NCBI GenBank assembly: GCA_965140775.1
Contig: OZ223471.1
Coordinates: forward strand, 3,042,198-3,106,197
DNA length: 64,000 nucleotides
Direction of reading: 5' to 3'
Source: Bacteroidales bacterium
GTDB taxonomy: Bacteria > Bacteroidota > Bacteroidia > Bacteroidales > F082
Shown here: piece after piece, positions 16,149-60,633 of the stretch
Layout: each line of letters begins with the position of its first letter
Numbering within the stretch: the first letter of the stretch is position 1
Notes under the pieces: model-generated
What the model saw: the letters and a program-made list of their open reading frames with translations, nothing else
Databases searched by the model: none
What the model was told of the DNA's origin: nothing
Position numbers and translations under genes: made by a program

Positions 16149-16236
16149 TTTGAAACCCGGGGTGCCATTATATTTATCTGTAATGCAGAGTTTTACCTCT
16201 CGATCAGCACTTCTAACTTCCTATTCCTCACCTTTT

Positions 16237-16365
16237 CTTCCCACTCCTGTTGATGTCCTACGGACAAGAACCTTTGCTTTCTGTTAATCTATTGATGTTG
16301 AAGCCCTATGGGCTATTCAATAATTCTGTCTTTTAATTAAAAACAACAATTCCATTCACCCTTTC
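16237..16365. repeat. 129-bp direct repeat, copy 1
   Basis: By eye there are 5 mismatches over 129 bp against 16418-16546, at an offset of 181 bp. The copy contains mini-hairpins GTCC-TAC-GGAC and AGCCC-TAT-GGGCT. Confidence 0.85.
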
Positions 16366-16417
16366 TCCTTATCTTCTTTTCTCCTCTTCTCCTTTTCTTC
16401 CGACTTCCGACTCCCGA

Positions 16418-16546
16418 CTTCCCACTCCTGTTGATGTCCTACGGACAAGAGCCTTTGGTTTATGTTAATCTATTGATGTTGAAGCCCTATGGGCTATTCA
16501 ATAATTCTGTCTTTTGATTAAAAACATCAATTCCATTCACCCTTTC
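16418..16546. repeat. 129-bp direct repeat, copy 2
   Basis: See copy 1. Each copy is followed by a polypyrimidine tract on the plus strand. Confidence 0.85.
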
Positions 16547-16636
16547 ACCACTTCACCTCTTCTCCACTTCTCCTCTTCTCCTCTTCACATCTCCTCCTCT
16601 TCTCCAAGCTGCCTACTCCTTACTCCCTACTCCTGA

Positions 16637-16727
16637 CTTCCGTCTCCCATCTTCCGTTTCCCGTCTTCCGTCTCCCATCTTCCGTTTCCCGTCTTCCGTT
16701 TCCCGTCTTCCGTCTTCCGTCTTCCGT
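16637..16727. repeat. 13 tandem heptamers (CTTCCGT / CTCCCAT / TTCCCGT) with 28-nt higher-order periodicity
   Basis: The array reads directly as cttccgt ctcccat cttccgt ttcccgt, twice, followed by further cttccgt/ttcccgt units. It ends 4 nt from the stop codon (16732-16734) of the propeller gene. Confidence 0.9.
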
Positions 16728-16731
16728 CCTC

Positions 16732-17841
16732 CTACTCCCACCCAAATCCATAAACCCGGCCGTCTTCGGCACCCACCACCATCAATTTATTAACAATAGC
16801 AGGAGTGCTGCTTATCGGGCTTCCGATTTCGTAGGACCAAATTTTTTGTCCGGCGTACATATCCAACAGGTATATTCGTCCGTCTTTGGAGGTGATGACC
16901 ACCTGATTTCCGGCGATTACCGGAGAGCTTTCTATTTTACCGAGGGTAACAAATTCCCACAAAATCTTGCCGGTATCGCCATCATAGGCATATACTTTTT
17001 TGTTTTGAGAACCAATAACGACGATGTTGTCTGAAGTGGCAGGCGAGCCAAGAAATGGTCCTGCACCCGGAACTTTCCAAAGGGCTTTTTTGCTGGAAAT
17101 ATCCACTTTGTAAAACACGCCATCGTAATTGCCAAAATAGGCCATGGGGCCCACCATGCATGCTGACGAGGCAATATAGGTACCGATTTCCACGGTATCT
17201 GCAATTGTTCCCGAAATCACATCCACCAAGTGCAACATACCGTCGCATCCGCCGAAGACTGCTTCCTTTCCGTTGGTGGCGGGAGTTCCGTTGATGTAGT
17301 TATCGGTTTCGTATTTCCAAAGTGGTTGTCCCGTAAGGGCATCCACACAATGAAGGTAATAATCGTAACTCCCGAAAATCAGATTTTGGCTTTTATCGTC
17401 GGCAGCAAGCGTCCAATTGGCAGCGCCGGATATCTGTCCTTCAGTAGCATAGTGCCATTTTTCGGATCCCGTTTTGGCATCCAACGCAAACATGATTCCC
17501 TCCAAAGAGCCCACAAAAACCGTTTGATCGAGAAACAAAGGAGGTGCTTCGATGGAGGTTTCAGTGGAAAACCGCCAAACCTCTTTGCCTTCAGCTGATA
17601 AGCAGTAAAGCGACCCTCCATTGGTTCCGATAAAAATATGGCCGTCAGCTATTATCGGTGAGGATTTGATGATGTCGTCGGTTTGAAAACTCCAAAGAAG
17701 CGCAGGATTATCCGGAATGGCGACATGGGTTGTTCCCGTCAGGGCAGGATTTCCGCGGTATGAAGGCCAACTATCTTGCTGTGCCTTTCCTGAAAAGGAA
17801 CACGAAATTATAATCAACCATATGATTATCAATCTATCCAT
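16732..17841 (-). CDS. PQQ-like beta-propeller repeat protein, secreted
   Basis: 369 aa with a signal peptide, the entry motif WPSYRGNPALTG, and repeated blade motifs (G..F.G, G...W). It overlaps the upstream gene by 8 nt. Confidence 0.8.
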   Translation of the reverse strand: MDRLIIIWLIIISCSFSGKAQQDSWPSYRGNPALTGTTHVAIPDNPALLWSFQTDDIIKSSPIIADGHIFIGTNGGSLYCLSAEGKEVWRFSTETSIEAPPLFLDQTVFVGSLEGIMFALDAKTGSEKWHYATEGQISGAANWTLAADDKSQNLIFGSYDYYLHCVDALTGQPLWKYETDNYINGTPATNGKEAVFGGCDGMLHLVDVISGTIADTVEIGTYIASSACMVGPMAYFGNYDGVFYKVDISSKKALWKVPGAGPFLGSPATSDNIVVIGSQNKKVYAYDGDTGKILWEFVTLGKIESSPVIAGNQVVITSKDGRIYLLDMYAGQKIWSYEIGSPISSTPAIVNKLMVVGAEDGRVYGFGWE

Positions 17842-19411
17842 CTAATTCATTTTTTAAAGCGATGGCGCCGGTTGGACAAGCGTTGGCACATCGGAGGGCA
17901 GTTTGGTCGAGCAAATCGGACATCGACTTATTGAGGGGCATGCCCATTTCTACCTCGAATCCACGATGAACGGAAGTGAATCCCAGCCGATCCTGCTCTT
18001 TTTCCGATATTTGAACACAGATATTGCACTTTATGCATTTTTCAGGTTCGTAAATGATCAGGTGATGCTGTTCGAATTTTCGTACTGGCTCCCGTTCCCC
18101 ATAAGAGAACATCCTCCTATCCACCCGGTATTCATCGGAATAGTTCCTAAGCTTACAGGTATGCGGCTTTCGGCAATCGCAATGCAAACACCTGCTTGCT
18201 TCAATCCGGGCTTGCTCAATGGTGAGCGATCCTTTGGTTTGAACACGGGGTGACCAACCACTTTCGGTCACAATTTCTTTTTGGTATTCAGCTACTTCCT
18301 CCTCGAAAAGTTTTCCAAATTTTGAGTTAAACTTGCGGTGAATTTTTCCCGGAGGCGATCCTTGAAGGTAGAGATCGACGGAATGTGCCGCGGCTTTTCC
18401 CTGTGCCACGGAAGTTACAGCCATTCGGCGTGAACGGATGATATTCCCACAGGCAAAAACGCCCTGCTCATCTACCTGCATGGTATCGCGGTTGACCGTC
18501 AATCCCTGTGAATCGTGGGGTAATCCAAAAGAGGACAATGGAGCCTCCTGAAAATCGCCTGTAGCCAGCACCACCGCATCAAAATTCTTTTTCAATTCAT
18601 TTTCAAAGAGTTCCCTGTTAATGTCGTAATTCATAATGAATGTGGCGCCCAAGGTTTTCAACAGATCAATTTCCGCATCCAACGCCGACCTAGGCAATTT
18701 TTCCTCCGGAATGGCATATCTCAATGCTCCACCCGCTTTCGGATGTTTGTCGTACAGCACACAACCATGACCCATGGTCAACAAAAAGTAAGCACACGAC
18801 AGACCGGCCGGACCCGTACCAACGATGGCGACCTTTTTGCCCGAAGGTGGACTTTTCTGTGGAAGATAAGCATCTGATCCGGCCAAATCTTCATCTGCTA
18901 CCAAATGTTTTAACTTACAAATGGAAACCGGCTCGTCCACCTGCCCCCGGCGGCAAGCTTTTTCGCAGGGAGCCGGACAGATATATCCCAAAATCAGGGG
19001 CAAGGCAATTTCCTCTTTCACCACTTTCAGGGCTTCGGTCAATTTTCCGTTGGAGATTAACCTGTTCATTTTGGGGATGTCCATGAACGCGGGACAGCTC
19101 GTCCGGCACGGAGCCTCGCAGTCGCCCACATGGTCGCTGAGCAGCAATTCCAGCGCTTCTTTGCGCGATTCGATGATTTCCTCGTCATGGGTGATGATTT
19201 CCAGTCCGTTTTCAGCTTTCAATGCACACGAAGGATGAATCTTTCCTGTTTTGGCATCCTTCACCACACACAACATGCACGAAGGATGGGTGGGCAATCC
19301 CTCGAGATAACACATGGTAGGAATTTGGATACCCGCCTGTCGGGCAGCTTCCAGCACGGTAGTTCCGTCCGGTACTTGCACCAGTATATTATTGATTGTC
19401 AGATCTATCAT
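17834..19411 (-). CDS. multidomain Fe-S flavoprotein: N-terminal 2Fe-2S ferredoxin domain, GltD-like FAD/NAD(P)H oxidoreductase, C-terminal Cys-rich 4Fe-4S region
   Basis: The sequence MIDLTINN..VPDGTTVLEAA...MCY resembles a NuoG/HydA N-terminal fold. The dinucleotide motif KKVAIVGTGPAGLSCAYFL is present, as are GltD-like CP.PCE.AC cluster motifs and a C-terminal CIKCNIC...CANACPTGAI. The ATG at 19411 forms an ATGA overlap with the NuoEF-like stop. Confidence 0.8.
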   Translation of the reverse strand: MIDLTINNILVQVPDGTTVLEAARQAGIQIPTMCYLEGLPTHPSCMLCVVKDAKTGKIHPSCALKAENGLEIITHDEEIIESRKEALELLLSDHVGDCEAPCRTSCPAFMDIPKMNRLISNGKLTEALKVVKEEIALPLILGYICPAPCEKACRRGQVDEPVSICKLKHLVADEDLAGSDAYLPQKSPPSGKKVAIVGTGPAGLSCAYFLLTMGHGCVLYDKHPKAGGALRYAIPEEKLPRSALDAEIDLLKTLGATFIMNYDINRELFENELKKNFDAVVLATGDFQEAPLSSFGLPHDSQGLTVNRDTMQVDEQGVFACGNIIRSRRMAVTSVAQGKAAAHSVDLYLQGSPPGKIHRKFNSKFGKLFEEEVAEYQKEIVTESGWSPRVQTKGSLTIEQARIEASRCLHCDCRKPHTCKLRNYSDEYRVDRRMFSYGEREPVRKFEQHHLIIYEPEKCIKCNICVQISEKEQDRLGFTSVHRGFEVEMGMPLNKSMSDLLDQTALRCANACPTGAIALKNELDG

Positions 19412-21741
19412 AGGATTACTACCGCGTTTACCGGACAAATCCGGCGACATATGTCACATTGAATACATTTTTCCTGATCCACCACATGCACCTGATAGGG
19501 TTGGAAGGCGATGGCATCTGTGGGACAATCGACGGCACACTTGGTACAGCCGATACAATCATCAGTGATCTGATAGTGAACCAGGGCTTTACACTTTCCT
19601 GACCTACACTTGCCTTCAATATGATCCAGGTATTCTTGCCGGAAATAGGTGAGTGTGGACAACACCGGATTGGGAGCAGTTCTGCCCAGACCGCACAGAC
19701 TTCCCTTTTGGGTGCTGTAGGCCAATTTTTCGAGGGTAAGGAGGTCTTCGGGTTTTCCATCTCCGGTACATATTTTATCGAGAATTTCAAGCATGCGGCG
19801 GGTGCCTATCCGGCAAAAGGTACACTGTCCGCACGACTGATCCTGGGTAAACGACAAAAAATACCGCGCCATGTCCACCATGCAATCGTCTTCATCCAGC
19901 ACCACCAGACCACCTGAACCCATCATGGCACCCACCGATGAAAGCGATTCAAAATCAATGGGGGTATCGGCCAAAGAAGCCGGAATACAACCTCCCGAAG
20001 GACCCCCAATTTGCACCGCCTTGAACACTTTTCCGTTGGGAATGCCGCCGCCGATTTTCTCCACAATCTCTCGGATGGTAATGCCCATGGGCACTTCGAT
20101 GAGACCGCCACGGTTGATTTTTCCTGCCAAAGCAAATACTTTGGTTCCCTTGCTATCGCCACTTCCGATGGAGGCAAAAGCGGGTGCGCCATGCCGGATG
20201 ATCCAGGAAATCAGCGAGAAAGTTTCGGTATTGTTGATGAGGGTGGGTTTACCCCACAGGCCTTGTTCGGACGGATAGGGAGGTCGCAAACGTGGGATAC
20301 CCCGGTTTCCCTCCACAGAGGCGATGAGGGCCGTTTCTTCGCCACAGATAAATGCTCCTGCCCCTTCAAAAACTGATAGCTCAAAGGAGAAATCAGTATG
20401 TAATATCTTACTGCCCAGCAAGTTGCTTTGTTCGCAGAGTTGCAATGCCTGTTTGATACGTTTTACGGCCAATGGATATTCGGCACGGATGTACAGAATT
20501 CCCCGGTTGGCACCCACGGCATAAGCGGCGATAATCATTCCTTCGATCACCCGAAAGGGGTACGACTCCAACAGCATGCGGTCCATGAAAGCCCCGGGGT
20601 CACCTTCGTCGCCATTGCAAATCACATACTTTTGGTCGGAGATTTCCTGCTGAACCAAAGACCACTTGGTACCGGTTGAGAAACCACCTCCTCCCCTTCC
20701 GCGAAGCCCGCTTTGCTTGATGATGTCAACAATTTCTTCAGGAGTTTGTTTGAGACATGTCTTGAGTGCCTCGAATCCTCCCAGACTAAGGTATTCGTTT
20801 AAATCAACGGGACTGATCATGCCACGATGCTCCGTGGCCAGATTTACCTGTCCGGCCAAAAACTCCGCCACGGGTGTATCTTGTTGGTCGCCGGCATATT
20901 TTTGGGTGAATTTGGGTACCCCATTGATTACATGATCATTAACAAAAGCATTAAGATTGGTAACGGTACGTCGCCAAAGGTTTTTCGATTTGAAATGCTT
21001 TCGGATGATGTCGTTGACTTCCCGTGCCTCAATTTTGGTATAAAAATAAGGTGTTTCGTTGGGTTTATGAATTTCCAGTAAAGGAACCTGATTGCATATT
21101 CCCACACAACCCACCTGTTTCACCTCCACGTTAGATTTGTTGGCGGCAAGAGACTGTTCCAAAGCAACTTTAACATCTGAGCTTCCGCTGGCCACACAGC
21201 AAGACCCCAGACCAATGCGGATTTCACCTTCCGACTCCTTGGTTGTTGCTGCCCGTTTACTGTCGCCAACCGTATCGCCATCCTTTGTTGTGAGAAACTC
21301 TTCCAGAATCTCTCCTACCCTACCCGGCTCCACATGTCCAAAGGTATGTTGATCTATTTGAACTGCAGGAGCAATGGTACAACACCCCAGACAGGCAACT
21401 TTTTCAACGGTAAAAAGGCCTTCAGCATCTGTATCTTCATTTTCATTCAGGTTTAAATGCCGCTTAAACGCATCGTAAACCTGCATGGCACCCTTCACAT
21501 GACAGGCCGTTCCCACGCATACCTTAATCATATGCTTTCCAACAGGTTGATGCCGGAATTGGTTGTAAAAAGTGGAAATGCCATAAATTCTTGAAAGGCT
21601 GATGTCGGTGGTTTCGGCCACACGAATCAGGGCCTCTTCCGGCAGATAATGATAAACAGCCTGAATGGCTTGCAAAATCGGGATTACCGACTCCACTGCG
21701 CGTCCATTTTCGGCGATGATCTTATCTACAACTTCCTTCAT
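19408..21741 (-). CDS. NuoE-NuoF fusion-type NAD(P)H dehydrogenase flavoprotein (HydB-like) with extra 2Fe-2S and 2x[4Fe-4S] domains
   Basis: NuoE-like cysteines (CVGTACHVKG...CLGCC). NuoF motifs GLRGRGGGGFSTGTKW, CNGDEGDPGAFMDR and SCGQCTFCR. C-terminal CIGCTKCAVDCP and CIQCDICRRICP. Confidence 0.85.
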   Translation of the reverse strand: MKEVVDKIIAENGRAVESVIPILQAIQAVYHYLPEEALIRVAETTDISLSRIYGISTFYNQFRHQPVGKHMIKVCVGTACHVKGAMQVYDAFKRHLNLNENEDTDAEGLFTVEKVACLGCCTIAPAVQIDQHTFGHVEPGRVGEILEEFLTTKDGDTVGDSKRAATTKESEGEIRIGLGSCCVASGSSDVKVALEQSLAANKSNVEVKQVGCVGICNQVPLLEIHKPNETPYFYTKIEAREVNDIIRKHFKSKNLWRRTVTNLNAFVNDHVINGVPKFTQKYAGDQQDTPVAEFLAGQVNLATEHRGMISPVDLNEYLSLGGFEALKTCLKQTPEEIVDIIKQSGLRGRGGGGFSTGTKWSLVQQEISDQKYVICNGDEGDPGAFMDRMLLESYPFRVIEGMIIAAYAVGANRGILYIRAEYPLAVKRIKQALQLCEQSNLLGSKILHTDFSFELSVFEGAGAFICGEETALIASVEGNRGIPRLRPPYPSEQGLWGKPTLINNTETFSLISWIIRHGAPAFASIGSGDSKGTKVFALAGKINRGGLIEVPMGITIREIVEKIGGGIPNGKVFKAVQIGGPSGGCIPASLADTPIDFESLSSVGAMMGSGGLVVLDEDDCMVDMARYFLSFTQDQSCGQCTFCRIGTRRMLEILDKICTGDGKPEDLLTLEKLAYSTQKGSLCGLGRTAPNPVLSTLTYFRQEYLDHIEGKCRSGKCKALVHYQITDDCIGCTKCAVDCPTDAIAFQPYQVHVVDQEKCIQCDICRRICPVNAVVIL

Positions 21742-21753
21742 TCAAATAACTCC

Positions 21754-23688
21754 CTAATTTCCAATACAAAACAAATGATCATTCCCACGAATATAGATTC
21801 GGCCATCTGCAAAAGCAGGGGTAGTCATACATTTCTCACCCAAGGGCGAATCTGCCAGCAAGTTAAACTCCCGTTCGGCACCAAAAACGTGCATGATACC
21901 GGCCATATCCATCAAATATATTTTTCCTTCTGCCAACATGGGCGATGAATAGAACCCGTTGTCGAACTCATGTTCCCATAAAATTTCTCCTGATTTGGCA
22001 TCATAGCAAACCATCACGCCATAGCTGGTAGCCATGAACAACAAACTTTCGGTGGCCACGGGACTGGGAACATCCGACAGATATTCGTCGCTTTCCCATA
22101 GAATTTCAGGAGATTCGCCCAATTGAATGGCCACCAGGCGGGCATATTCATTCACGGCATACACCACCCCATCGGCATAAGCCGCCGACGGACCCACTTC
22201 GCCAAAAATACAATTCAGTTCCCAGTTTAACTTTCCCGTCAACGGATCGAACGACGAGACCATGGGGTCGGCCACCGTAATTATTTCAGTACGATTACCG
22301 ATATTTACCACGATAGGCGAAGCCCAGGAAATTTTCACCTTGTGTTCAGTCTCCCAAACGGTTGCTCCCGTGAGTACAGAAAGCCCCATGAGTTTGGGAG
22401 CGGATTTGATATCGTATTGCAGAATCAACATATCCTGATACAATATAAGTGAGGAGGAGTGGCCGTAATGATTGCCGGTGGGACCCATATTTTTCGCCCA
22501 AAGTTGCCGGCCTTCCATGTCGAGCGCAATCAAATCACCATTGGCAAAAATGGCAAACACCCGCTGTCCGTCGGTAGTTAAGGATGGCGCCGCCTGTCCG
22601 GTATCCTCGGTAACTTTGGGCGCAGTGGGAGGAGAACCCGGTATTCCGGAAACCTGAGTTGTCCACAAAAATTCACCCGTATTTCGATCCAGACAATAGA
22701 CCTCCCGCTGAGCCGAATTGGCTCCCGACACGAAAAGCTTATCGCCCCAAATAATGGGCGAATTATAGCCATGTAAGGGGATTTTTACTTTCCACAGGAT
22801 GTTTTCTCCCGTGACACCATCCCAGTCAACAGGAATATTTTTACGATGGGAAATACCGTTTCCAAAGGGTCCGCGAAAGGAAGGATGATTGCTGAGAATT
22901 TCCTTTTCGGTGGGGAAAGCAGGGACAGTTTTGGGTTGATCAGGTATCCCGGTTGATTTGGCTTTTTCTTCTTGTTTAGGCTTTTTGGGTTGCTCTGTAA
23001 CGACTGCTTCCGTATTTTTCTCCGGATTTTTTATGGGTGCAACAACAGCAGCAGGTTCCTCAGTTTGACTTTCCGTAACAACTGAATTTTCTTCGGATAC
23101 TCCCAAGTTTTCAGGTTGAGGCGATTCTTCTTCCAAAACAGGGTTTTGAACAGGTGTGGATGCCGAATTATTTGAATTTTCGGAAGCAGAGGCCATCAGT
23201 TGATTGGCCAATGAGTCGGATAGTTGCAAATGCGTTAACAGGGCAAAGACAAAAGCAATAACTACCAGAGCTCCACCGCTGATGGCCACCCATTTTCGGG
23301 CCTTTTGTTGTTCAAAAAATGTATTTTCCTTTTCAGACATCTCCACCTCTCTGGCGGCATTTGTGTGCATCATCTGCATGGCCAGCACCAACACCACCAC
23401 ACTGATCAACAACAAATAACCACCGGTTCTGACCTGCCACTGATTGGTAAAATATGCCTTACGCGCCAGCAAATCAACGGTTCGTATTTGCTCACGCAAC
23501 TGCACATCGTCGGGGTTGGCATTCAGACGTTGCACCAGCGCATTGATCATCTCCGTTTCCACAGGATCCATGCGTTTGTATTGAGCATAATTCACAATCA
23601 ATAAGATGGATATGACGAAAGCAAAAGCTCCGGCAATTTGTGCCAAAAGTTTCCAGAAATTGCTATGCACGCTCCTATTTTGTGTCAT
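21754..23688 (-). CDS. membrane-anchored PQQ-like beta-propeller (3 TM helices, ~100-aa acidic/Pro-rich linker, propeller)
   Basis: 644 aa. The N-terminus has hydrophobic helices, followed by a low-complexity E/P/K/T/V linker, then PSFRGPFGNG and propeller blades. Confidence 0.8.
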   Translation of the reverse strand: MTQNRSVHSNFWKLLAQIAGAFAFVISILLIVNYAQYKRMDPVETEMINALVQRLNANPDDVQLREQIRTVDLLARKAYFTNQWQVRTGGYLLLISVVVLVLAMQMMHTNAAREVEMSEKENTFFEQQKARKWVAISGGALVVIAFVFALLTHLQLSDSLANQLMASASENSNNSASTPVQNPVLEEESPQPENLGVSEENSVVTESQTEEPAAVVAPIKNPEKNTEAVVTEQPKKPKQEEKAKSTGIPDQPKTVPAFPTEKEILSNHPSFRGPFGNGISHRKNIPVDWDGVTGENILWKVKIPLHGYNSPIIWGDKLFVSGANSAQREVYCLDRNTGEFLWTTQVSGIPGSPPTAPKVTEDTGQAAPSLTTDGQRVFAIFANGDLIALDMEGRQLWAKNMGPTGNHYGHSSSLILYQDMLILQYDIKSAPKLMGLSVLTGATVWETEHKVKISWASPIVVNIGNRTEIITVADPMVSSFDPLTGKLNWELNCIFGEVGPSAAYADGVVYAVNEYARLVAIQLGESPEILWESDEYLSDVPSPVATESLLFMATSYGVMVCYDAKSGEILWEHEFDNGFYSSPMLAEGKIYLMDMAGIMHVFGAEREFNLLADSPLGEKCMTTPAFADGRIYIRGNDHLFCIGN

Positions 23689-23709
23689 ATACTATTCATT
23701 TCTATATCA

Positions 23710-24981
23710 TTAGCTATCTTTTTGTACAGGACAATAATCCATACATCGGGCACAACTCAAGCAAGTTCCTTTGTTGGGCTCATAATCTTTTCTGAATTTA
23801 AAGGTGGACAATTGGGCCAACGTCAATCCAAAAACTAGTCCCAAAAAACCTCCCAGCCACATGCTGCCCACCCGAAATTTGTTCAATAGGTCATGTGATT
23901 CGGCCATCAGGGTTTCACGGCTTTTTCCGGATGCCCTGAAAGCCTCTACCTCAATGGAAACTTCTGTGTTATTTTCCGTTGAATTGCTCAACAACATGAC
24001 CTCTTGTGCCAAACGAATTTTTGGATGAACCAGGGCCAGTTTTTCATGAAATTGCGCTCCCGTCCATACCCCGAGCACAACCAAGAATGGAATGATGGCG
24101 GCCAAGGCCAAAAAGCGCCTGGATGTTACCTTGGGCGATTCTTTCAACCGGACAGATTCGGGTTGTTCGATGGCTCCGAAAGGACAGGAATTTTCGCACA
24201 AGCGACATTGAATACATTTGGAGGGCGTGATGGTGAGGTGATATTTTGAGATGCGGCTCGTGAGGTTGAGCAATACGCCATAGGGACAAAAAAACCGACA
24301 GTAGGGCCGTGCAATGAAAACGCTGGTCAGTAAAAAAATGGCACCTAAAGCAATCATGGTAAATGTGCCATCCAAGCGAAATATCCCGATAAATGGATCG
24401 TACCGACAAATGACAAAATCGGTGGCCGTAGCTGCATAAAGCACTGCCAATCCGAGATAGATAAACGGAATCAATCCCAACAAAGTTTGCAACCACGATC
24501 GCAACTGAATTGGTTTCCAAACAAATAAATCCTGTATGGCACCCAACGGACAAACTCCGGCACAAAACACCCGTCCGAAAAGAAGGGAAAACACCAACGG
24601 AAGAATAAAAAAGGCCAATACCGTAACCGGAATTTTATATCCCGGCTCGAACAATGCCAGTGCGATATTTTGTACTGATCCTACCGAACAAACACACCCT
24701 TCGCGAAAAAACCCAAAATACCCGATGGAGAACACCGACACCAACAGCACACCCACGCGGGAACGCTTTTTCAATACCAACCAGGTTACCAACGACAACG
24801 CCAGCAACAACACCAAAACATCCAAATACTCCAGATAATTGGACCGTGCAGCAGGAATCTGGGTAATTTTTTGCACATAACCCGACTCAAACTCCGGCTT
24901 GGGAAAACGTTGGGCCTGTGCTACGACTCCTTGAATCATGGCCAAAAATAACACGCCTATTTTACTTGTCAGGTTTTTCAT
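23710..24981 (-). CDS. NapH/NosR/MauN-type integral-membrane polyferredoxin
   Basis: Two CX3CP motifs lie in TM-flanking positions (FCAGVCPLG, CRFFCPYG). Ferredoxin motifs CIQCRLCENSCP and CLSCARCMDYCP are present. The start is set at ATG 24981, 4 nt after the upstream stop, because the longer track ORF would overlap the ferredoxin gene. Confidence 0.8.
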   Translation of the reverse strand: MKNLTSKIGVLFLAMIQGVVAQAQRFPKPEFESGYVQKITQIPAARSNYLEYLDVLVLLLALSLVTWLVLKKRSRVGVLLVSVFSIGYFGFFREGCVCSVGSVQNIALALFEPGYKIPVTVLAFFILPLVFSLLFGRVFCAGVCPLGAIQDLFVWKPIQLRSWLQTLLGLIPFIYLGLAVLYAATATDFVICRYDPFIGIFRLDGTFTMIALGAIFLLTSVFIARPYCRFFCPYGVLLNLTSRISKYHLTITPSKCIQCRLCENSCPFGAIEQPESVRLKESPKVTSRRFLALAAIIPFLVVLGVWTGAQFHEKLALVHPKIRLAQEVMLLSNSTENNTEVSIEVEAFRASGKSRETLMAESHDLLNKFRVGSMWLGGFLGLVFGLTLAQLSTFKFRKDYEPNKGTCLSCARCMDYCPVQKDS

Positions 24982-24985
24982 GGAG

Positions 24986-25561
24986 TTACGAATTTTTGGA
25001 TACCAACCCTTTAAAGATACTGCTTTCGCTTGCCGGCACACGACTAAATGCATCGGCCGGACAATCACGGGCGATCGCACACTCGTTGCAGTTGACACAA
25101 ATATCCTGACGCACTTGCAGTTGTAGGGAACCATTGCCAAAAGCACTGCATCCGGCCACACACTTTCCACAGCCGATGCACAAATCTTCGTCGATGGTAT
25201 ATTCATAAAAGGGGTCTTCCACAAACTTCCGTTGAATGGCAGCGGTGGGGCAAAGCTGGTTTTCGGCGGCCGTGGTGAGTTGGGAAGTGCCCGGACGGAA
25301 ATATCCGCCGCATAAATTGCAATAACCACACATATCGAAAACATGTACACATTTTACGGCAGAGGGGGTGAGAACACAATGGGTGGCACATTGACCACAT
25401 TGTACGCATTTGGCCGGATCCAACTGCCAGACCAGCTCTTCGGTTGAAGCGTTTTTGGCCAGAAAAATGCCTACCCCACCCAAAGCCACGCCTGCCGTAA
25501 TCCGGAGACTGCTGAACAGAAATTCTCTGCGGGTGGTGCTATGGTCTTTATTTTCTGACAT
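24986..25561 (-). CDS. Tat-exported poly-[4Fe-4S] ferredoxin (NapG/MauM-like)
   Basis: Twin-arginine motif TRREFLF followed by a hydrophobic region. Cys clusters CVQCGQCATHC, CGYCNLCGG, CIGCGKCVAGC and CVNCNECAIARDCP. The start is ATG 25561. Confidence 0.8.
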   Translation of the reverse strand: MSENKDHSTTRREFLFSSLRITAGVALGGVGIFLAKNASTEELVWQLDPAKCVQCGQCATHCVLTPSAVKCVHVFDMCGYCNLCGGYFRPGTSQLTTAAENQLCPTAAIQRKFVEDPFYEYTIDEDLCIGCGKCVAGCSAFGNGSLQLQVRQDICVNCNECAIARDCPADAFSRVPASESSIFKGLVSKNS

Positions 25562-25757
25562 GCAATTCGCGTTTGATGAATTCGTCGGCTTGGGGCAAAC
25601 CGCATGTTGTGAGCTTTTTGCAGTTGCGGCAAACAAAATCGAAAGTACATGTTTCACCGGTTTCCTCTTTCAGCAGCAAATAACCACTTCCCACGGCAAT
25701 TGCCCCGAAAGTCATGTTTCGCAATACTTTTTTCAAAAATGTTCTCCTGTTTACCAT
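25548..25757 (-). CDS. small Tat-signal protein with a Cx5Cx2Cx5C motif (about 69 aa)
   Basis: MVNRRTFLKKVL is a near-consensus S/T-R-R-x-F-L-K motif, followed by the hydrophobic region FGAIAVGSGYLLL and then ETCTFDFVCRNCKKLTTCGLP. The ORF overlaps the ferredoxin gene start by 14 nt. The track ORF begins 3 codons earlier at a TTG. Confidence 0.6.
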   Translation of the reverse strand: MVNRRTFLKKVLRNMTFGAIAVGSGYLLLKEETGETCTFDFVCRNCKKLTTCGLPQADEFIKRELHVRK

Positions 25758-25768
25758 AGCCCCCAAAT

Positions 25769-26740
25769 TTACAAACTATTGTGCTGAAAGACCCTAATCT
25801 TTCGCTGTTTTGGGTCGAGAACAATGATTTTTTGTTCTGAATCCACCGCCAAATCAAGACCCGTGGTTCCCTTTTCAAACTGATGGGGTGCCGCCACCAC
25901 ACAACTAAAACTGCCATCAGGGCGATGTATTTTTATTCTGACCAGCCCTTTTTCGCTGGTAACGAAGGAACCGTCCGAAAGCAGGGCAATATGTGAAGGG
26001 TTACAGCAACCACTAAATCCCTCAAGGGTCATGGAAGTTTTGGTCCAGGAAGATAACAATCTACCGGAAGGGTCGTAGGCTTCAAGTTGGTGCATACCCG
26101 AATTGACCACCCACAACTCACCATCTCTGCCCGGAGCCACGTCGAAATAGGCGCTGGGAATCACAAAGCCGGGGATGCCACGAAGGCTGTCTTTTCTTCC
26201 AATTTCATTGATGAAATCGCCATTCAGGTTGTAGTGATATACCACTTTGTTTCCGGCATCAGCCACAAAAACCGACGAATCGGAAACGGCGATGCTCGTA
26301 ATAAATACATTCTCGTTTCTGGTTTCCCAAACGGCTTTTTGAATCCCGTCTTGTGTCCAGCTTTCCAGGTGATCCAGTGCGCCCAGCAGGATATCACCGT
26401 CATCGGCAACCGCCAACGCTGTGGTTTCAACACCCGTATAAATTGTTTTTTGAACCTGACCATTTTCATTGAAAATCAAAAAGCTATCCTTACCCCCCAC
26501 GTAAATATGGTCCAGATTATCCAAAGCAAGTGCATGTGGAGCTTGTAATCCAATGGGGAAACTCATGACTTCATGGTAGCAAATCAAAGACGAATCAACC
26601 TCTTCGTAATCCGTGATATTAAACTGATACACATTTTTTTGTGGCGTATCAAAACCACCGAAAAAGTCGTAAGCCATCAAGGCAACAATGATCAGGATAA
26701 CGACAACCGCAAGTAAAACGATCCATTTATTTTGTTTCAT
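25769..26740 (-). CDS. NHL-repeat six-bladed beta-propeller protein with N-terminal membrane anchor
   Basis: 323 aa. The anchor is WIVLLAVVVILIIVALMAY. NHL-like blade repeats are visible (D..G.I.V.D..N..V..F). A vicinal Cys pair occurs in GCCNPSHIAL. Confidence 0.7.
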   Translation of the reverse strand: MKQNKWIVLLAVVVILIIVALMAYDFFGGFDTPQKNVYQFNITDYEEVDSSLICYHEVMSFPIGLQAPHALALDNLDHIYVGGKDSFLIFNENGQVQKTIYTGVETTALAVADDGDILLGALDHLESWTQDGIQKAVWETRNENVFITSIAVSDSSVFVADAGNKVVYHYNLNGDFINEIGRKDSLRGIPGFVIPSAYFDVAPGRDGELWVVNSGMHQLEAYDPSGRLLSSWTKTSMTLEGFSGCCNPSHIALLSDGSFVTSEKGLVRIKIHRPDGSFSCVVAAPHQFEKGTTGLDLAVDSEQKIIVLDPKQRKIRVFQHNSL

Positions 26741-26751
26741 GGTCTTAAATT

Positions 26752-28182
26752 TTAGTGTTTACGCAGATCCAGACACACCATTTGTTTTGAATCGCGCATG
26801 AGCAGCCTACCGTCGGCAATGGCAATGGGTCCCCAGGCATCCTGCCCCTGGATGATTCGTTTTTTGTCCAGCACCTCAAATCCGGAAACAGAGGCACGGG
26901 CAATGGTCATGGTTCCATCATCACTCAAGATGAAAAACTTGCCATCGGCCATGATGTAAGGTCCCAGTCCGAAGCGTTCCTTTTTACCACTCGTCCACAG
27001 GATATCCTGAACATCATCGGGCGCACAGCAAGCCAGTTGGTTTCGGTTCATACCGGCATCCTTGGGCAAGATAATAAACAGACGGTTGTTCCAAAAAATG
27101 GCCGTTTGTTGCTCAGAAGCAATGCCTTCCTTGGGTTTAAATTGTTGAAGCATGTTGGCAGAAAACCTACCTACCCTTTCAGTTACCTGAAAAAGCACTG
27201 ACCCCGCGCCATAACCTGCCGTCATGAAAATTTTACCTTCCGGTAAAAGAAGCGGTGAAGGAGCCACGACGTTGGGAGCGAAATCGGTAAATTTCCACAA
27301 TATGGAACCCATGTCTTTACCCGTGGCCGAAACGCCACAAATTCCACCCACAGCGGCATACACGTACATTTTCTTTCCGTTGAAGGTCATGGGCATGATG
27401 GATGAATGTGACATTTGCCAATGGTCCGGGTTGGGGGTCTCCCAAACAACCTTCCCTGTGGCGCAATCCACCGCCACCAAAAGCGCACTGCCTCCGGGAG
27501 CAAGAATGGCCAGGCCGGAGTCAATGAGCGGACATTGTCCGGTGTACCAAAAAGGGATTTCCGTGTGATAGGTTTTCACCATATCCAGTCCCCAAATCAG
27601 GTCGCCTGAAACAGGATTACAACACATCACATGACCCAAAGGACCGATGGTTAAAACAAAATCATCCGTTACCACCGGAACCGTGCGCGACATGCCATGG
27701 TTTCGCTTTACATGAACAGAGTAACTCCTTCGCCACAATTCCTCCCCCGTTTCCAGCGAGAAACATCGGAGGGCGACTGCTTTTTCATCCTCCAAATAAT
27801 CAAGGAGATACACTTTTCCGTTGTATATGGCAGGAGCCGCATGTCCTTCACCCAAATCCACTTTCCATTTGATTTCGACATTGCCTTCAGGAAATCGATC
27901 AATCAATGGGATGTTTTCTTTGTTGATGTTGTCGAAATCGCTTCCGCGAAAGCGTGACCACTTGCCTTTTAATGACGAATCCTCGCTTAAAAAGTGTTGA
28001 AATTTCTCACCAATAACCACCACCTGAGTGCTTTCGGCAAGGCTATCGGGCCGATCGTCCATACCCGGAATGCTCTTGCTAAAATCGCCAACAGGATCGT
28101 ACACCACCCAAAAGATAACCAATACCAAGCCTACAAAGCTGATGATAAGCAAGAGGTATTTTTCTTTGGAGAAAGAGAGCAT
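26752..28182 (-). CDS. PQQ-like beta-propeller with N-terminal membrane anchor
   Basis: The anchor YLLLIISFVGLVLVIFWVV is followed by the WSRFRG entry motif and propeller blades. Vicinal Cys pairs occur in VMCCNPVSG and LACCAPDD. ATG 28182 is preferred; TTG 28206 is possible. Confidence 0.75.
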   Translation of the reverse strand: MLSFSKEKYLLLIISFVGLVLVIFWVVYDPVGDFSKSIPGMDDRPDSLAESTQVVVIGEKFQHFLSEDSSLKGKWSRFRGSDFDNINKENIPLIDRFPEGNVEIKWKVDLGEGHAAPAIYNGKVYLLDYLEDEKAVALRCFSLETGEELWRRSYSVHVKRNHGMSRTVPVVTDDFVLTIGPLGHVMCCNPVSGDLIWGLDMVKTYHTEIPFWYTGQCPLIDSGLAILAPGGSALLVAVDCATGKVVWETPNPDHWQMSHSSIMPMTFNGKKMYVYAAVGGICGVSATGKDMGSILWKFTDFAPNVVAPSPLLLPEGKIFMTAGYGAGSVLFQVTERVGRFSANMLQQFKPKEGIASEQQTAIFWNNRLFIILPKDAGMNRNQLACCAPDDVQDILWTSGKKERFGLGPYIMADGKFFILSDDGTMTIARASVSGFEVLDKKRIIQGQDAWGPIAIADGRLLMRDSKQMVCLDLRKH

Positions 28183-28224
28183 TTCCGGAGCAGTTATTAT
28201 TTCCAAGCGACTTGTTAAGCCGAT

Positions 28225-29448
28225 CTATTTTTGTGCGATATCATACACCATGAGGGAAGTTCCGTGACGGACATACAATTTTTTATCATGAATTACCAGG
28301 TGTGCCCAATGGTACTGTTCGCCGTAAGGCACTTCAAAGGAGCTGATCAGGTTAAAATCATTTGTTTTGGGATCAACGATTCCCACTTTACCACCTGTGC
28401 CATAACAATATAAGAGTCCATCGGCATAGATAATAATACCTACTTTCAGCATCTTAGAGGAATACAACTCCTCCCCTGTTTCCCAATCCAGACAAAACCA
28501 ACTCTTGTTTTTATCACCTGAACCGTAAATGCGTCCATCTACCAAAACCACACCGCCCATCTTGCTGTCGAGAGACGAATTTCGCCACAGTTCAGTGATG
28601 GAGTTGCCATCTTCGGAAACCTGAAGCATAACACCTCCTTTTCCATAACCACTAAAGCAGTATAATTTTCCATCTTTATAAACGGGCGAATTGGCTTGCA
28701 CCGACCAGGTATTGGGATGCTCGAGACTCCACAACAATTTTCCCGTTGAGGCTTCAAATCCCAAAATGGAATTGGCTGTTTGGGTCACAATAATTTTACG
28801 ACCACCTACCTCGATCGCAATGGGAGAGCAATAGGCGCTCAATTCTTCCAAACCCTTGGATTTCCAAATCAACTCGCCGGAATCTTTGTTTAGCGCAATC
28901 ACGTTGGCCTCTAATCCGCCGGGAGTGACGTATAATTTTCCATCATCGATGAGGAGGTTTTCGGTTACACCCCATTTAATATTTCGTCCATCATAATCGT
29001 TGAAAAGATCAACTGTCCATTCGATTTTTCCGGATTTTGCAGACATGCAAACAAGCTTTCCAAATGAGCTCATGATGTAAAGTTTACCATCGTAAACCAA
29101 TGGGGTAGAACGTGTTCCTTCAAAACTCTCCATCCACTCCGGTCCAAAATCTGTTTTCCATTTCAAGTGGCCTTGATGATCGAGTGCCACCACAAATCCA
29201 ATACCCTCGGGGCTTGTTCCGGCAGTGTAAACCATTTCATTGGTTACGGCTGCAGAAGCATGACCCGGACCTAAATCATCATAATGCCATAAGAGCATGG
29301 GACCCTCTACAGGCCATTCCTTTAAAAGACCTGTTTCATGATAGATTCCGTCACGGTTGTCGCCACGCCATTGAGCAATTTCCTGGGATTCGACATGGGT
29401 TTGCAGTAAGAAGATCAACCCGACAAATAACAGTGTTATTTTACGCAT
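28225..29448 (-). CDS. PQQ-like beta-propeller repeat protein, secreted (first gene of the operon)
   Basis: 407 aa with a signal peptide, the AQWRGDNRDG entry motif, and repeated G.LY/G..LW blades. Confidence 0.8.
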   Translation of the reverse strand: MRKITLLFVGLIFLLQTHVESQEIAQWRGDNRDGIYHETGLLKEWPVEGPMLLWHYDDLGPGHASAAVTNEMVYTAGTSPEGIGFVVALDHQGHLKWKTDFGPEWMESFEGTRSTPLVYDGKLYIMSSFGKLVCMSAKSGKIEWTVDLFNDYDGRNIKWGVTENLLIDDGKLYVTPGGLEANVIALNKDSGELIWKSKGLEELSAYCSPIAIEVGGRKIIVTQTANSILGFEASTGKLLWSLEHPNTWSVQANSPVYKDGKLYCFSGYGKGGVMLQVSEDGNSITELWRNSSLDSKMGGVVLVDGRIYGSGDKNKSWFCLDWETGEELYSSKMLKVGIIIYADGLLYCYGTGGKVGIVDPKTNDFNLISSFEVPYGEQYHWAHLVIHDKKLYVRHGTSLMVYDIAQK

Positions 29449-29567: not shown

Positions 29568-29598
29568 CAAAAAAAGCCGCTTTCCAGCGGCTTTTTCC
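29568..29598 (-). terminator. rho-independent terminator after PorP/SprF (bidirectional A-run/T-run hairpin)
   Basis: The sequence is AAAAAGCCGC-tttcca-GCGGCTTTTT. On the minus strand the GC stem is followed by T7. It lies 12 nt after the stop at 29610. Confidence 0.7.
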
Positions 29599-29609: not shown

Positions 29610-30734
29610 CTAAAACGGCGAACACTCTATCGGACTATAACTCCGTGGCCGTGGCGACATGAAGGAGTTCTTGTCTTTGTTCACCAGGCCGATGTCGTCC
29701 AGTTCGAAGATCAGGCTGATTTCGTGGCTGGGGCCGGTGAAGCTCTGGCGGGCGTTGATGTTCACCTCGTAGCTGTACATGAGTTTCATGCGGTATTGCT
29801 CCGTGAAGGGGATGTTCAATCCCAGCATCACGTCGAAACTGCTGAACTCGTCGTATTCCAGGGTCTGGTTTTTGTACCACAAACCCAAATACACATGTTG
29901 CATGTACACGTTGGTGCCCAAAGTGTACAAAAACATGTTGCGCTGGTGTTCTACCATCACGCCCGGATTGAGCTTAAAGCCTTGCTTTTTCTGGTAGTAG
30001 CCCTGCTCCTGACCCATGGTGATGACAAAGTCCAGGTTGTACACGAACTTTCGGGGGAGGGCAGCGTCCACGTCAAAAAAGCTTTGGTTGGGCTCGGTGA
30101 TGTGGTGCACGGCCACGCCCAGCTTGCCATCCACGTCCCTGCCTTGCCATTGGAAGATACCTCCAAAGCTAAAGTCGGGGAAGCTCACCTTGTCGCGGGC
30201 GGCGCCGGCAAAGGTGCTCGGCCCGATGTTGCCCCACCTGGGATCCAGCTGGTCTTCAAAAACCAGGTTGTCCCAGTTCAGACTCTGGGTGACCACCGAG
30301 GCCAGTGCTCCCAGTTGGAAGATCATGTTGTGGGCCACGGGAATGCGTACCGAGGGCAAGAAGCCAAAGGTGTTGGTCTTTAACATGCCCACCCCTTCCA
30401 GGGTTTGGGAGGCGATCACGCCAATTCCTCCGGCACCGGGCAGACTGCGCTCGGCCACGTCGGCACTAAAGCTGTAGGTGTGGTAGTTGCCCTGAAGGCC
30501 GGTCCACTGTTTTTTGTAGTTCAACCTTACCTTTAACCCCTGGGTCAAACCCACGTTGGCAGGATTGTAATAGGTGGGGTTGTTGTAATACTGGGCAAAG
30601 TCCACGTCCTGGGCATGGAGCCTTTGGGGAAGAAACAGGATGCTCAGAAAAAGTAGGCTGAGGCTCAGGCTCAGGCTTAGGTTGAGGCTCAGATTCATTC
30701 CGAATGTCGATTTGATGGTGTTTTCTTTTTTCAT
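29610..30734 (-). CDS. PorP/SprF-family type IX secretion system membrane protein
   Basis: The sequence QDVDFAQYYNNPTYYNPANVGL...KKQW.GL.G...T matches the PorP/SprF N-terminal signature. The gene sits 12 nt downstream of a type-B CTD cargo gene. Confidence 0.85.
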   Translation of the reverse strand: MKKENTIKSTFGMNLSLNLSLSLSLSLLFLSILFLPQRLHAQDVDFAQYYNNPTYYNPANVGLTQGLKVRLNYKKQWTGLQGNYHTYSFSADVAERSLPGAGGIGVIASQTLEGVGMLKTNTFGFLPSVRIPVAHNMIFQLGALASVVTQSLNWDNLVFEDQLDPRWGNIGPSTFAGAARDKVSFPDFSFGGIFQWQGRDVDGKLGVAVHHITEPNQSFFDVDAALPRKFVYNLDFVITMGQEQGYYQKKQGFKLNPGVMVEHQRNMFLYTLGTNVYMQHVYLGLWYKNQTLEYDEFSSFDVMLGLNIPFTEQYRMKLMYSYEVNINARQSFTGPSHEISLIFELDDIGLVNKDKNSFMSPRPRSYSPIECSPF

Positions 30735-60631: not shown

Positions 60632-60633
60632 GG

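Follow-up and report, generated by a model that had tools for sequence, protein, structure and literature searches.

Ten co-directional genes and their conservation

We analysed a 64-kb stretch of DNA from a Bacteroidales bacterium (contig OZ223471.1, positions 3,042,198 to 3,106,197; hereafter the window), in which ten co-directional minus-strand genes at 16732-29448 encode flavoproteins, Fe-S proteins and exported beta-propellers. The genes were delimited by an open reading frame (ORF) map and start-codon analysis, and they are named g1 to g10 in the order of transcription. Coordinates are those of the window, and the predicted products are as follows (TM, transmembrane; Tat, twin-arginine translocation).

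28225-29448, minus strand: g1, 407 aa, signal peptide, PQQ_2-type beta-propeller
26752-28182, minus strand: g2, 476 aa, N-terminal TM anchor, eight-bladed PQQ_2 propeller
25769-26740, minus strand: g3, 323 aa, TM-anchored NHL-repeat propeller
25548-25757, minus strand: g4, 69 aa, Tat-motif single-helix Cys4 peptide
24986-25561, minus strand: g5, 191 aa, Tat-motif ferredoxin with 16 Cys
23710-24981, minus strand: g6, 423 aa, NapH-like integral-membrane Fe-S protein
21754-23688, minus strand: g7, 644 aa, three TM helices, low-complexity linker and PQQ_2 propeller
19408-21741, minus strand: g8, 777 aa, fused BfuC and BfuB
17834-19411, minus strand: g9, 525 aa, truncated BfuA/NfnA-like subunit
16732-17841, minus strand: g10, 369 aa, exported PQQ_2 propeller

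The intergenic gaps from g1 to g10 are +42, +11, +11, -14, +4, +21, +12, -4 (ATGA) and -8 nt, and the ORF map thus agrees with an earlier note on this DNA, which had described ten co-directional genes with gaps of -14 to +42 nt, including ATGA and 8-nt overlaps. The products and domains listed in that note all hold in Pfam and NCBIfam, and TM prediction returned the anchors that it had named (one helix in g2, one in g3 and three in g7). None of the ten products reaches the curated cut-off of any named equivalog in NCBIfam. A motif scan found no CxxCH haem motif in any of the 16 products examined, including all ten of the cluster, for which the note had already reported its absence. These 16 products therefore lack the signature of a multihaem cytochrome conduit, and a conduit of that type was rejected on this ground. 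Promoter and terminator consensus matches inside the region were not above shuffled expectation, so that a single transcript is neither contradicted nor proven.

Relatives of g6 number in the thousands, and a scan of one genome per species identified at least 589 stretches encoding g6 relatives with the signature motifs. Synteny was counted in the best 80 of these stretches by tblastn with all proteins of the window, and the denominator for each gene is the number of loci long enough to show it. The best 80 stretches all come from Bacteroidales sensu lato (Marinifilaceae, Prolixibacteraceae, Lentimicrobiaceae, Salinivirgaceae, Draconibacterium, Mariniphaga, Perlabentimonas and Ancylomarina). 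The order g2-g3-(g4)-g5-g6-g7-g8-g9-g10 was colinear in 77 of the 80 species genomes, and the individual genes were found at the expected position as follows.

g2: 65/66 loci
g3: 70/71 loci
g4: 60/76 loci (the peptide is short, and some copies may be missed)
g5: 76/77 loci
g7: 67/69 loci
g8: 54/57 loci
g9: 49/52 loci
g10: 46/50 loci

In annotated contexts, all ten genes are present in Labilibaculum manganireducens (contig L001) and in two other genomes, with g6 identities of 62-79%, and a 96%-identical relative (L093) has an identical layout. Given that the gene order is kept in 77 of 80 other genomes, a chance neighbourhood is excluded and the ten genes are, as judged from their order, one conserved unit. 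The earlier note had made the same claim, and had said that it would fall if the genes were not syntenic in related genomes; the neighbourhood survey that it proposed found the reverse, and the core recurs in Planctomycetota-type contigs.

These contigs came from a search with a g6-g7 fusion as the query, which recovered members labelled Planctomycetota and Phycisphaerae. Two of them, L085 and L088, encode a g2-like propeller, an NHL protein, g5, a g6-g7 fusion, g8 and g9. L086 encodes g5, a g6-g7 fusion, g8, g9, an ABC ATPase, an FtsX permease and a g10-like propeller, and L089 encodes, with overlapping stops and starts, a g10-like propeller, the ABC ATPase, FtsX, a g2-like propeller, an NHL protein, g5 and a g6-g7 fusion. 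The same core thus occurs in all four with a different local order. The ABC ATPase and FtsX permease have counterparts downstream of g10 in the window:

15898-16731, no strand: repeat-rich spacer between g10 and the GT4 gene
14608-15897, minus strand: GT4-family glycosyltransferase, 429 aa, Glycos_transf_1 / Glyco_transf_4 (Pfam)
13928-14611, minus strand: type VII ABC ATPase, LolD/MacB/FtsE-like, 227 aa, ABC_tran (Pfam)
10606-13890, minus strand: duplicated FtsX-type permease, 1094 aa, two FtsX domains (Pfam)

The best model for the ATPase is LolD (5e-74, below the equivalog cut-off), and the MacB, FtsE and DevA models also match. The TM layout of the permease leaves two extracytoplasmic domains of ~455 and ~225 aa, and the pair therefore has the composition of a type VII ABC transporter, namely a LolD/MacB-type ATPase with an FtsX-fold permease bearing extracytoplasmic domains. 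The ATPase gene follows g10 or the GT4 gene in 32 Bacteroidales loci and adjoins core genes in L086 and L089, where full-length FtsX orthologues (28-32% identity) overlap or abut g2, g10 or g9 homologues. In L089 the ABC-FtsX pair is flanked by g10 and g2, and in L086 by g9 and g10; the g10 orthologues adjoining it show 35% identity (3e-79) in L089 and 31% (2e-66) in L086. On this genomic evidence, the ATPase and the permease travel with g10 and the core across phyla, and the system extends past the repeat spacer. The idea of a self-contained cluster that ends at 16732 has accordingly been abandoned.

The gene contexts point to a cross-phylum core of g2, g3, g5, g6, g7, g8, g9, g10, the ABC ATPase and FtsX. 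The genes g1, g4 and GT4 were found only in Bacteroidales; g1 is multi-copy in 48/66 Bacteroidales loci and absent from the Planctomycetota-type clusters, and no separate g4 gene occurs in L085, L088 or L089. The GT4 gene lies between g10 and the ABC gene in 36 loci and is absent from Marinifilaceae and from the other phylum; it is at most a possible member of the system. Thus, of the five periplasmic propellers emphasized in the earlier note, the domain calls all hold, but the conserved set consists of g2, g7, g10 and the NHL protein g3, and g1 is specific to one lineage and appears to be an accessory of variable copy number. As far as gene contexts can tell, the cluster is real and tightly conserved; its carriers are anaerobic bacteria of sediments, which number in the hundreds and represent at least two phyla.

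Besides being conserved as a unit, the gene set includes subunits that also occur as fusions with one another. An exhaustive representative search with g6 (E <= 1e-30) gave 396 clusters at 50% identity, and about 10 of the best 150 representative clusters are g6-g7 fusions of ~1000 aa. The protein P0126 joins g6 to g7 (32% identity to g7, 2e-111), P0132 and P0294 join g6 to the N-terminal TM region of g7, P0308 and P0311 join g6 to the NuoE domain of g8, and P0299-P0301 are triple fusions of g4, g5 and g6. In L089, the g5 homologue carries a Cys4 insert after the Tat signal, which mimics g4. Because natural fusions join these subunits, we infer that g4, g5, g6, g7 and g8 act in physical contact. 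We regard the fusions as the strongest non-experimental evidence for what would be one redox assembly reaching from the cytoplasm to the periplasm.

Predicted properties of the subunits

The cytoplasmic module consists of g8 and g9. In Pfam, g8 contains 2Fe-2S_thioredx, Complex1_51K, NADH_4Fe-4S and two Fer4 domains. The first of these (NuoE-type, residues 6-149, 7e-51) corresponds to BfuC and is fused to a BfuB part, which has an N-terminal [2Fe-2S], the FMN/NADH site, an N3-type [4Fe-4S] and C-terminal double-ferredoxin motifs. The features that define BfuB (FMN/NADH site, B1 cluster, N-terminal [2Fe-2S] and C-terminal ferredoxin extension) are thus all present. Residues 174-776 align end-to-end with residues 7-594 of NfnB (9n5u_B, 1e-209) with every Cys motif matched, and g8 also aligns end to end with 9bov_B, with the StnC-type chain 8oh5_B and with HydB, whereas the non-bifurcating NuoF/FdsB homologues span merely ~290-706 of g8. 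Conservation is at least 95% for all ligand Cys and for the GRGGGGF / NGDEGDPGAF motifs. The description of g8 as a NuoE-NuoF fusion in the earlier note is therefore right at the domain level and can be refined, since by its alignments g8 is identified as a fused BfuC-BfuB core of the electron-bifurcating Bfu family, whose members include HydBC, NfnABC and StnABC.

The g9 product matches Fer2_4, Fer4_20 and an FAD domain in Pfam, and contains a [2Fe-2S] motif, two GltD-type [4Fe-4S] motifs including the Lys-ligand position, the FAD domain and two more C-terminal cluster motifs. Its best matches in the PDB are 9bov_A (4e-99), 8oh5_C and 9n5u_A (NfnA/StnA). The alignment with 9bov_A jumps from query 301/chain 299 to query 304/chain 453, so that a NAD(P)H-binding lobe of ~150 residues (chain ~300-452) is deleted, and it stops before the pterin-like C-terminal domain of NfnA/StnA. 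An Nfn-type BfuA has a GltD-like FAD domain that binds NADP(H); in g9 the FAD domain is kept, and the NAD(P)H lobe and the C-terminal domain are gone. In 51 homologues, which are 514-541 aa long, the cluster Cys, K168 and GxGxxG are retained, and all homologues, including those of the other phylum, have this shortened form. The chain of NfnABC, FAD-A7-A6-A3-A2-A1-B1-FMN, has the FAD as its terminal entry point and a Lys ligand at A7 (PMC11829005); g9 keeps the Cys residues that match the NfnA clusters as well as K168.

These alignments suggest that g8 and g9 form a Bfu core whose port for the 'third substrate' has no nucleotide site, and the obvious candidate for the replacement partner of g9 is the cytoplasmic Fe-S end of g6. 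The earlier note had cast g9 as an oxidizer of NAD(P)H. The usual route is impossible, because the NAD(P)H-binding subdomain is deleted; for the same reason, we place NADH at g8 rather than NAD(P)H at g9, and an Nfn transhydrogenase was ruled out for g8-g9. What survives of NAD(P)H as the cytoplasmic partner is NADH at g8, and the Bfu type of g8 and g9 implies NADH plus ferredoxin, which are probably the two cytoplasmic partners.

The membrane protein g6 has two Fer4_5 domains and an Fer4 domain (Pfam), and in addition to a signal peptide it is predicted to contain seven TM helices. The distribution of K/R (positive-inside rule) places the N-terminus outside and the C-terminus inside, in agreement with the fusions. 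The periplasmic face carries the invariant elements QRFPKPEFESGY, C96-x-C98 and C192. The cytoplasmic face carries C140-x3-C144-P and C228-x3-C232-P (CX3CP) together with C256/259/262/266-P and C407/410/413/417-P (CxxCxxCxxxCP), and across 64 sequences these motifs, which are those of NapH/MauN, are either invariant or conserved to at least 90%. Since P0308 and P0311 join g6 to a NuoE domain, its ferredoxin-type end was placed on the cytoplasmic (NADH) side. The scores against the NapH/MauN model TIGR02163 (52.0 bits, cut-off 213) and the NapH model PRK09477 (47.1, cut-off 234) are far below the family thresholds, and the four-TM topology of NapH/MauN, with both termini in the cytoplasm, is not that of g6. 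A sequence search of the PDB matched generic ferredoxin motifs only, and gave no solved homologue of g6.

The putative partner of g6 on the outer side, g5, has Fer4 family matches (Pfam), a TRREFL Tat motif and 16 Cys, which are enough for four [4Fe-4S] clusters; the Cys and the Tat motif are invariant across phyla. No NapG-family model of NCBIfam matches g5, and by analogy it may be a functional counterpart of NapG/NosG/MauM. The small peptide g4, which has no family match in Pfam or NCBIfam, contains an RRTFLK motif and the pattern C-x5-C-x2-C-x5-C-x-LP(E/Q)A. Its four Cys are at least 95% conserved in 61 homologues, in some of which the RR motif is RK. From its distribution and fusions, g4 appears to behave as a detachable Cys4 module of the ferredoxin g5.

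Among the propellers, g1, g2, g7 and g10 match PQQ_2, and all four also match the BamB family of Pfam. The best-conserved periplasmic subunit is g2 (TM helix at 9-27), with 61-70% identity within the order. Its residues H162 (K.NHGMSRT), C217 (GQCP), H259 (M[ST]H[ST]S), C140, C187, C385 and C470 are invariant across phyla. In an AF2 (AlphaFold) model of g2 (pLDDT 88), the invariant motifs lie in loops that precede the innermost strands of successive blades, and they would thus cluster on one face around the central channel. The best PDB folds for the model are BamB and tetrathionate hydrolase (TMq 0.53-0.62, 15-16% identity, E ~1e-17), and we take this model-based likeness as resemblance and not as membership. 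The NHL-repeat protein g3 (Pfam; TM helix at 6-24) has the motif F-x-G-C245-C246-(N/G)-P, whose vicinal Cys pair is invariant in 75 homologues and across phyla; a look-up of the exact g3 sequence gave no match. Conservation of this kind marks g2 as a candidate catalytic or docking subunit, and g2, with its invariant His and Cys, and g3, with its invariant GCC, as the best catalytic candidates.

The other three propellers, g1 (PQQ_2 at 9e-25), g7 (5.5e-28) and g10 (2.5e-37; Beta-prop_ACSF4 at 1e-59), have no cofactor motif recognizable from Pfam, NCBIfam or residue conservation. The TM helices of g7 are at 14-32, 89-107 and 134-152, its first periplasmic loop is conserved, and the fusions indicate that it is the membrane partner of g6. 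The g10 product has a signal peptide and is possibly a lipoprotein. Two known families were considered and rejected for the propellers. PQQ alcohol/glucose dehydrogenases (TIGR03075) give 29-85 bits against a cut-off of 480, over partial stretches only, and matches to quinoproteins of the PDB are no better than 3e-6 over ~140 residues. BamB orthology (TIGR03300, cut-off 285) fails at 142 bits for g10, 69 for g7, 60 for g1 and 28 for g2, and the genomic context is wrong.

Proposed electron path and alternative explanations

We consider it somewhat more probable than otherwise that the region encodes one multi-subunit, haem- and pterin-free transmembrane redox machine, most likely an outward electron sink. 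In such a machine, g8 would bind NADH at its FMN and probably also ferredoxin, as the solved relatives do, and electrons would run along the Fe-S chain of the trimmed BfuA, g9, whose FAD without the NAD(P)H lobe would face no nucleotide. From g9 they would pass to the cytoplasmic [4Fe-4S]/CX3CP end of the seven-TM g6 and, by way of its invariant Cys on both membrane faces, to the Tat-exported four-cluster ferredoxin g5, which in Bacteroidales would be assisted by the Cys4 peptide g4. The g5 protein would then serve the tethered propellers g7 and g2 and the NHL protein g3. The type VII ABC transporter (ATPase and duplicated FtsX) and g10 would be conserved accessories; if they act as NosDFY or FtsEX do, they may serve to load or assemble the periplasmic part or to operate it mechanically.

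Fermentative anaerobes would in this way dispose of NADH and reduced ferredoxin on a periplasmic acceptor, for which chelated Fe(III)/Mn(IV) or an inorganic sulfur compound are candidates. Tetrathionate hydrolase is a cofactor-less propeller of the PQQ_2 type that acts on inorganic sulfur, and the match of the g2 fold to this enzyme is the sole basis for the sulfur candidate. Outward flow is favoured because no known low-potential oxidase accompanies the cluster, because the hosts ferment, and because electrons of Labilibaculum go to Fe(III)/Mn(IV). Strains of this genus ferment, and 2-12% of their electrons are passed to Fe(III); strain 59.10-2M also reduces Mn(IV), and the responsible genes are unknown (PMC5760507). 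The cluster is carried by the L. manganireducens genome on contig L001.

In some respects, the cluster resembles systems that are already known. As in NapGH, NosGH and MauMN, a Tat-exported polyferredoxin (g5) is encoded beside a CX3CP membrane protein (g6), near exported propellers. However, g6 has seven TM helices and a signal peptide instead of four TM helices, it has extra invariant periplasmic Cys residues and the invariant QRFPKPEFESGY segment, and the cytoplasmic partner of g6/g5 appears to be the Bfu module and not obviously quinol. Partner domains of the NapA, NosZ or MauB type are absent from the window and from 90 related loci. Similarly, g8 is like BfuB plus the BfuC domain of the Bfu family (HydABC, NfnABC/StnABC; PDB 9BOV, 9N5U, 8OH5), and g9 aligns with the N-terminal 670 residues of NfnA/StnA, but here B and C form one protein, both the NADPH lobe and the entire pterin-like C-terminal domain are missing from BfuA, and a membrane Fe-S protein that leads to the periplasm appears to act as the 'third substrate'. 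A survey of Bfu enzymes, including its supplement, covers hydrogenase, formate dehydrogenase, Nfn and Wor forms, the Mbh- and Nuo-linked forms, which are the only membrane forms that it names, and 17 clades without assignment; no NapH-linked form is among them (PMC9304861).

Clade II nos clusters also combine an exported propeller as end-protein, a NapG/NapH-type conduit and an ABC transporter in one cluster. They differ from the present cluster in that it has no cupredoxin or CuZ His signature, NosD, NosL or cytochrome, that its transporter is a LolD-like ATPase with a duplicated FtsX and not NosFY, and that an NADH/ferredoxin module is present. It has been reported that NapH-like modules, most of them of unknown function, link cytosolic or membrane electron pools to periplasmic oxidoreductases, including the propellers NirS and ExaA (Meheust et al. 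2021, PMC8238504). The flavinylated systems described there are defined by an ApbE-flavinylated FMN-binding domain, whose place is here taken by the Tat ferredoxin; no FMN_bind domain or ApbE was found by Pfam in any product, and a flavinylated system was therefore rejected. Finally, the g2 model superposes on both BamB and tetrathionate hydrolase, which are likewise eight-bladed and of the PQQ_2 type, but the identity is 15-16% and the genomic partners here are redox proteins and not the BAM machinery.

By analogy, then, the cluster would combine a Bfu enzyme with a conduit of the NapGH/NosGH type. This gene set is not described in any paper that the literature searches brought up, the NCBI product names matched no papers, and the NapH homologues mentioned in an ANME genomics paper are unrelated. 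The earlier note had recognized no characterized system in this architecture, and we concur, since neither curated family models, nor solved structures, nor the literature found describes the gene set. The cluster is a distinct, widespread and undescribed combination, and there is a substantial chance that its periplasmic end hides new chemistry. As a tentative extension, which we rate as possible but well short of probable, it may represent a new class of terminal reductase of the respiratory type, in which flavin-based confurcation of NADH and reduced ferredoxin by the Bfu core feeds an all-Fe-S transmembrane wire, independent of haem and quinone, that leads to propellers with a new metal- or Cys-based site (g2 and/or g3). 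If this were true, the confurcating reductase would be the long-sought 'fermentative-type' electron sink with which fermenting Bacteroidota and Planctomycetota of sediments could reduce, for example, Fe(III)/Mn(IV) chelates or inorganic sulfur compounds.

Such a system would matter in several respects. Bfu enzymes are central to anaerobic energy metabolism, and their third substrate is unknown in many clades; the cluster would add a class directed to the membrane and periplasm. For NapH/NosR-type proteins, the electron donor and the crossing are unresolved, and the g6-NuoE, g6-g7 and g4-g5-g6 fusions define a set of partners for reconstitution. The hosts are abundant fermenters of anoxic sediments, some of which reduce Fe(III)/Mn(IV) by unknown genes, for which the cluster is a testable candidate route, and cultured carriers exist (Labilibaculum, Marinifilum, Draconibacterium orientale, Ancylomarina and Perlabentimonas).

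Several points weigh against an outward electron sink of this design. Co-transcription, complex formation and electron flow are all matters that we infer. If g8 is a true bifurcating enzyme, a partner at about -400 mV would be thermodynamically preferred, and this potential is unsuited to Fe(III) and to polysulfide alike. A redox cofactor could be demonstrated in none of the propellers, which may be scaffolds. The AlphaFold model of g6 is poor (pLDDT 69), and Foldseek found no PDB match for it (best E 0.9). To our knowledge, there is no known mechanism by which proteins of the NapH-type family would carry electrons without haem across a membrane of ~30 Å. The triple fusion keeps a hydrophobic segment between g5 and g6, so that the topology of this junction is ambiguous. 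In addition, the periplasmic and membrane genes occur without adjacent g8/g9 in L024, L028, L044 and L089, and another donor such as menaquinol may serve these loci.

The alternative that survives best, which we nevertheless regard as unlikely, is a role in maturation or maintenance, in which electrons of the Fe-S conduit and a component supplied by the ABC transporter assemble, reactivate or keep reduced a periplasmic propeller enzyme or thiols. Parallels exist in NosR/NosGH with NosDFY, which serve NosZ, and in DsbD-type export of reductant, and the clade II nos architecture of exported propeller, NosG/NosH-type pair and ABC transporter is much alike. The invariant vicinal Cys pair of g3, the invariant Cys of g2 and the thioredoxin-like gene after g6 in the variant locus L024 would fit such a role, and the TM anchors or Sec-type signals of the propellers imply that any cofactor is inserted in the periplasm. 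On the other hand, no recognizable end-enzyme in need of maturation is encoded in or near the clusters, a whole Bfu module would be unusual for maintenance, and the ABC transporter is of type VII and not NosFY-like, with no NosD or NosL.

A reversal of the flow is about as unlikely, and we give it a low probability. Here the propeller or propellers would oxidize a low-potential periplasmic donor, and via g5 and g6 the Bfu core would bifurcate the electrons to NAD+ and ferredoxin, as Bfu enzymes linked to hydrogenase or formate dehydrogenase do when they work in reverse. Bfu enzymes can run in either direction, and the potentials of their known third substrates are intermediate between those of NAD and ferredoxin (PMC9304861), NapH-like systems also occur with oxidases such as the PQQ ethanol dehydrogenase ExaA (PMC8238504), and the propellers are distant relatives of PQQ dehydrogenases. 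Yet no locus contains a hydrogenase, a formate dehydrogenase or any other known low-potential oxidase, and the 29-85 bits of the propellers compare with the 480 bits required of a PQQ alcohol dehydrogenase. Moreover, the hosts are anaerobes, whereas PQQ biosynthesis requires O2.

It is also conceivable, but in our view improbable, that the propellers are non-catalytic, BamB-like scaffolds which position g5 or bind substrate, and that g5 itself reduces soluble acceptors unspecifically (Fe(III) chelates, quinone-like humics or polysulfide). The archaeal MBS complex offers a precedent for sulfane reduction by Fe-S clusters only, the g2 fold is matched best by BamB, and g1, g7 and g10 show no recognizable cofactor motif. 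The pattern of residues in g2 and g3 is more typical of a site than of a scaffold, however, given that g2 is the most conserved propeller, with invariant His, Cys, Arg and Lys motifs in the loops before the innermost blade strands, and that the GCC motif of g3 is invariant across phyla. The last alternative is an assortment of unrelated neighbours that only lineage-level synteny keeps adjacent. In this case a NapGH-like module with propellers would depend on menaquinol, g8-g9 would be a separate cytoplasmic transhydrogenase of the Nfn/Stn type, and the ABC exporter would have no relation to them. Such an assortment would agree with the classical role of NapH as a quinol dehydrogenase, with the four loci in which g8/g9 do not adjoin g6 and with the 835-nt spacer between g10 and the GT4-ABC genes of the window. 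It is already disfavoured and very improbable, however, since g9 without the NADPH lobe makes g8-g9 no Nfn-type transhydrogenase, fusions of g6 with a NuoE domain occur, the stops and starts of the adjoining genes g5-g6/g7-g8-g9 overlap in another phylum, and ABC-FtsX is embedded among core genes in L089 and L086.

Cluster edges, flanking genes and variant loci

The following features of the window lie outside the genes discussed above.

9161-10402, minus strand: sixth PQQ_2 propeller, 413 aa (Pfam)
7949-9136, minus strand: exported protein, 395 aa, no family match (Pfam)
29571-29596, no strand: palindromic hairpin, 11-bp stem with 5 GC pairs, A and T runs on the flanks

The upstream edge of the unit is marked by the hairpin, which separates g1 from the PorP/SprF gene further upstream. 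The earlier note had drawn the edges at a terminator in this place and at the repeat-rich spacer. Both the hairpin and the repeats (16237-16727) are real, but the spacer is no boundary of the system in relatives. It contains two 91%-identical copies of ~162 nt (16237-16398 and 16418-16579) and a 7/14-nt tandem array of the CTTCCGT type (16587-16727). The gap downstream of g10 measures 835 nt here, as against 155 nt in L090, a close relative, and 18-51 nt in the loci L002 and L004. Because close relatives have merely 18-155 nt, we conclude that the repeats are a recent expansion specific to this genome.

Downstream of FtsX, the close relative L090 also encodes the sixth propeller and the 395-aa protein (88-89% identity), which do not accompany the 43%-identical FtsX of L092; from this distribution, they are possibly a lineage-specific extension. 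HlyD-type membrane-fusion and TolC-like outer-membrane efflux genes are found at 1458-3918 on the minus strand, 6-9 kb beyond FtsX and with plus-strand genes intervening. Partners of the HlyD/TolC type are typical of MacB-type pumps.

Upstream, on the same strand, the PorP/SprF gene (29610-30734) is accompanied by two giant ORFs of 3555 and 3426 aa (29610-51884 in all). The 3555-aa ORF encodes an adhesin with over 30 PKD domains and, for type IX secretion, a CHU_C signal. Both giant ORFs fall within regions (~30-36 kb and 42-48 kb) where the GC content is raised and the GC skew strongly positive. In the 96%-identical relative L093, a 6950-aa PKD protein and PorP occupy the same place. The PorP/SprF gene and the giant PKD adhesins were rejected as members of the unit, since they are a type IX secretion cargo pair that lies upstream only in the close relatives L002 and L093 and is absent from the other related loci.

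Among the loci with unusual gene content, L024 carries a variant cluster, g1-g2-g3-g5-g6 without g7-g10 (3528-12029). It is preceded by a 599-aa protein resembling squalene-hopene cyclases or the TED of alpha-macroglobulins, and a 171-aa thioredoxin-like protein follows the cluster. For L024 and L044, both without g8-g10, a thioredoxin-like gene and a squalene-cyclase-like gene were the sole and weak hints seen. A rearranged variant with three unusual genes occurs in L087 (8928-14603), where an NHL C-terminal fragment and a g5-like ferredoxin are combined in one product of 307 aa, a NapH-like protein is fused to NuoE (P0310), and a 576-aa protein joins the C-terminal Fe-S domain of NuoF to the N-terminal part of a g9-like protein. 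The next gene in L089 (12993-15413) encodes a fusion of TPR, FGE-sulfatase and GDSL-lipase domains, and the next gene in L086 (17977-18412) encodes an ArsP_1-type permease. At the far end of the window, the GC content of 60001-64000 is 0.30-0.34 as compared with ~0.46 elsewhere, and this region may be a foreign island or an AT-rich gene set.

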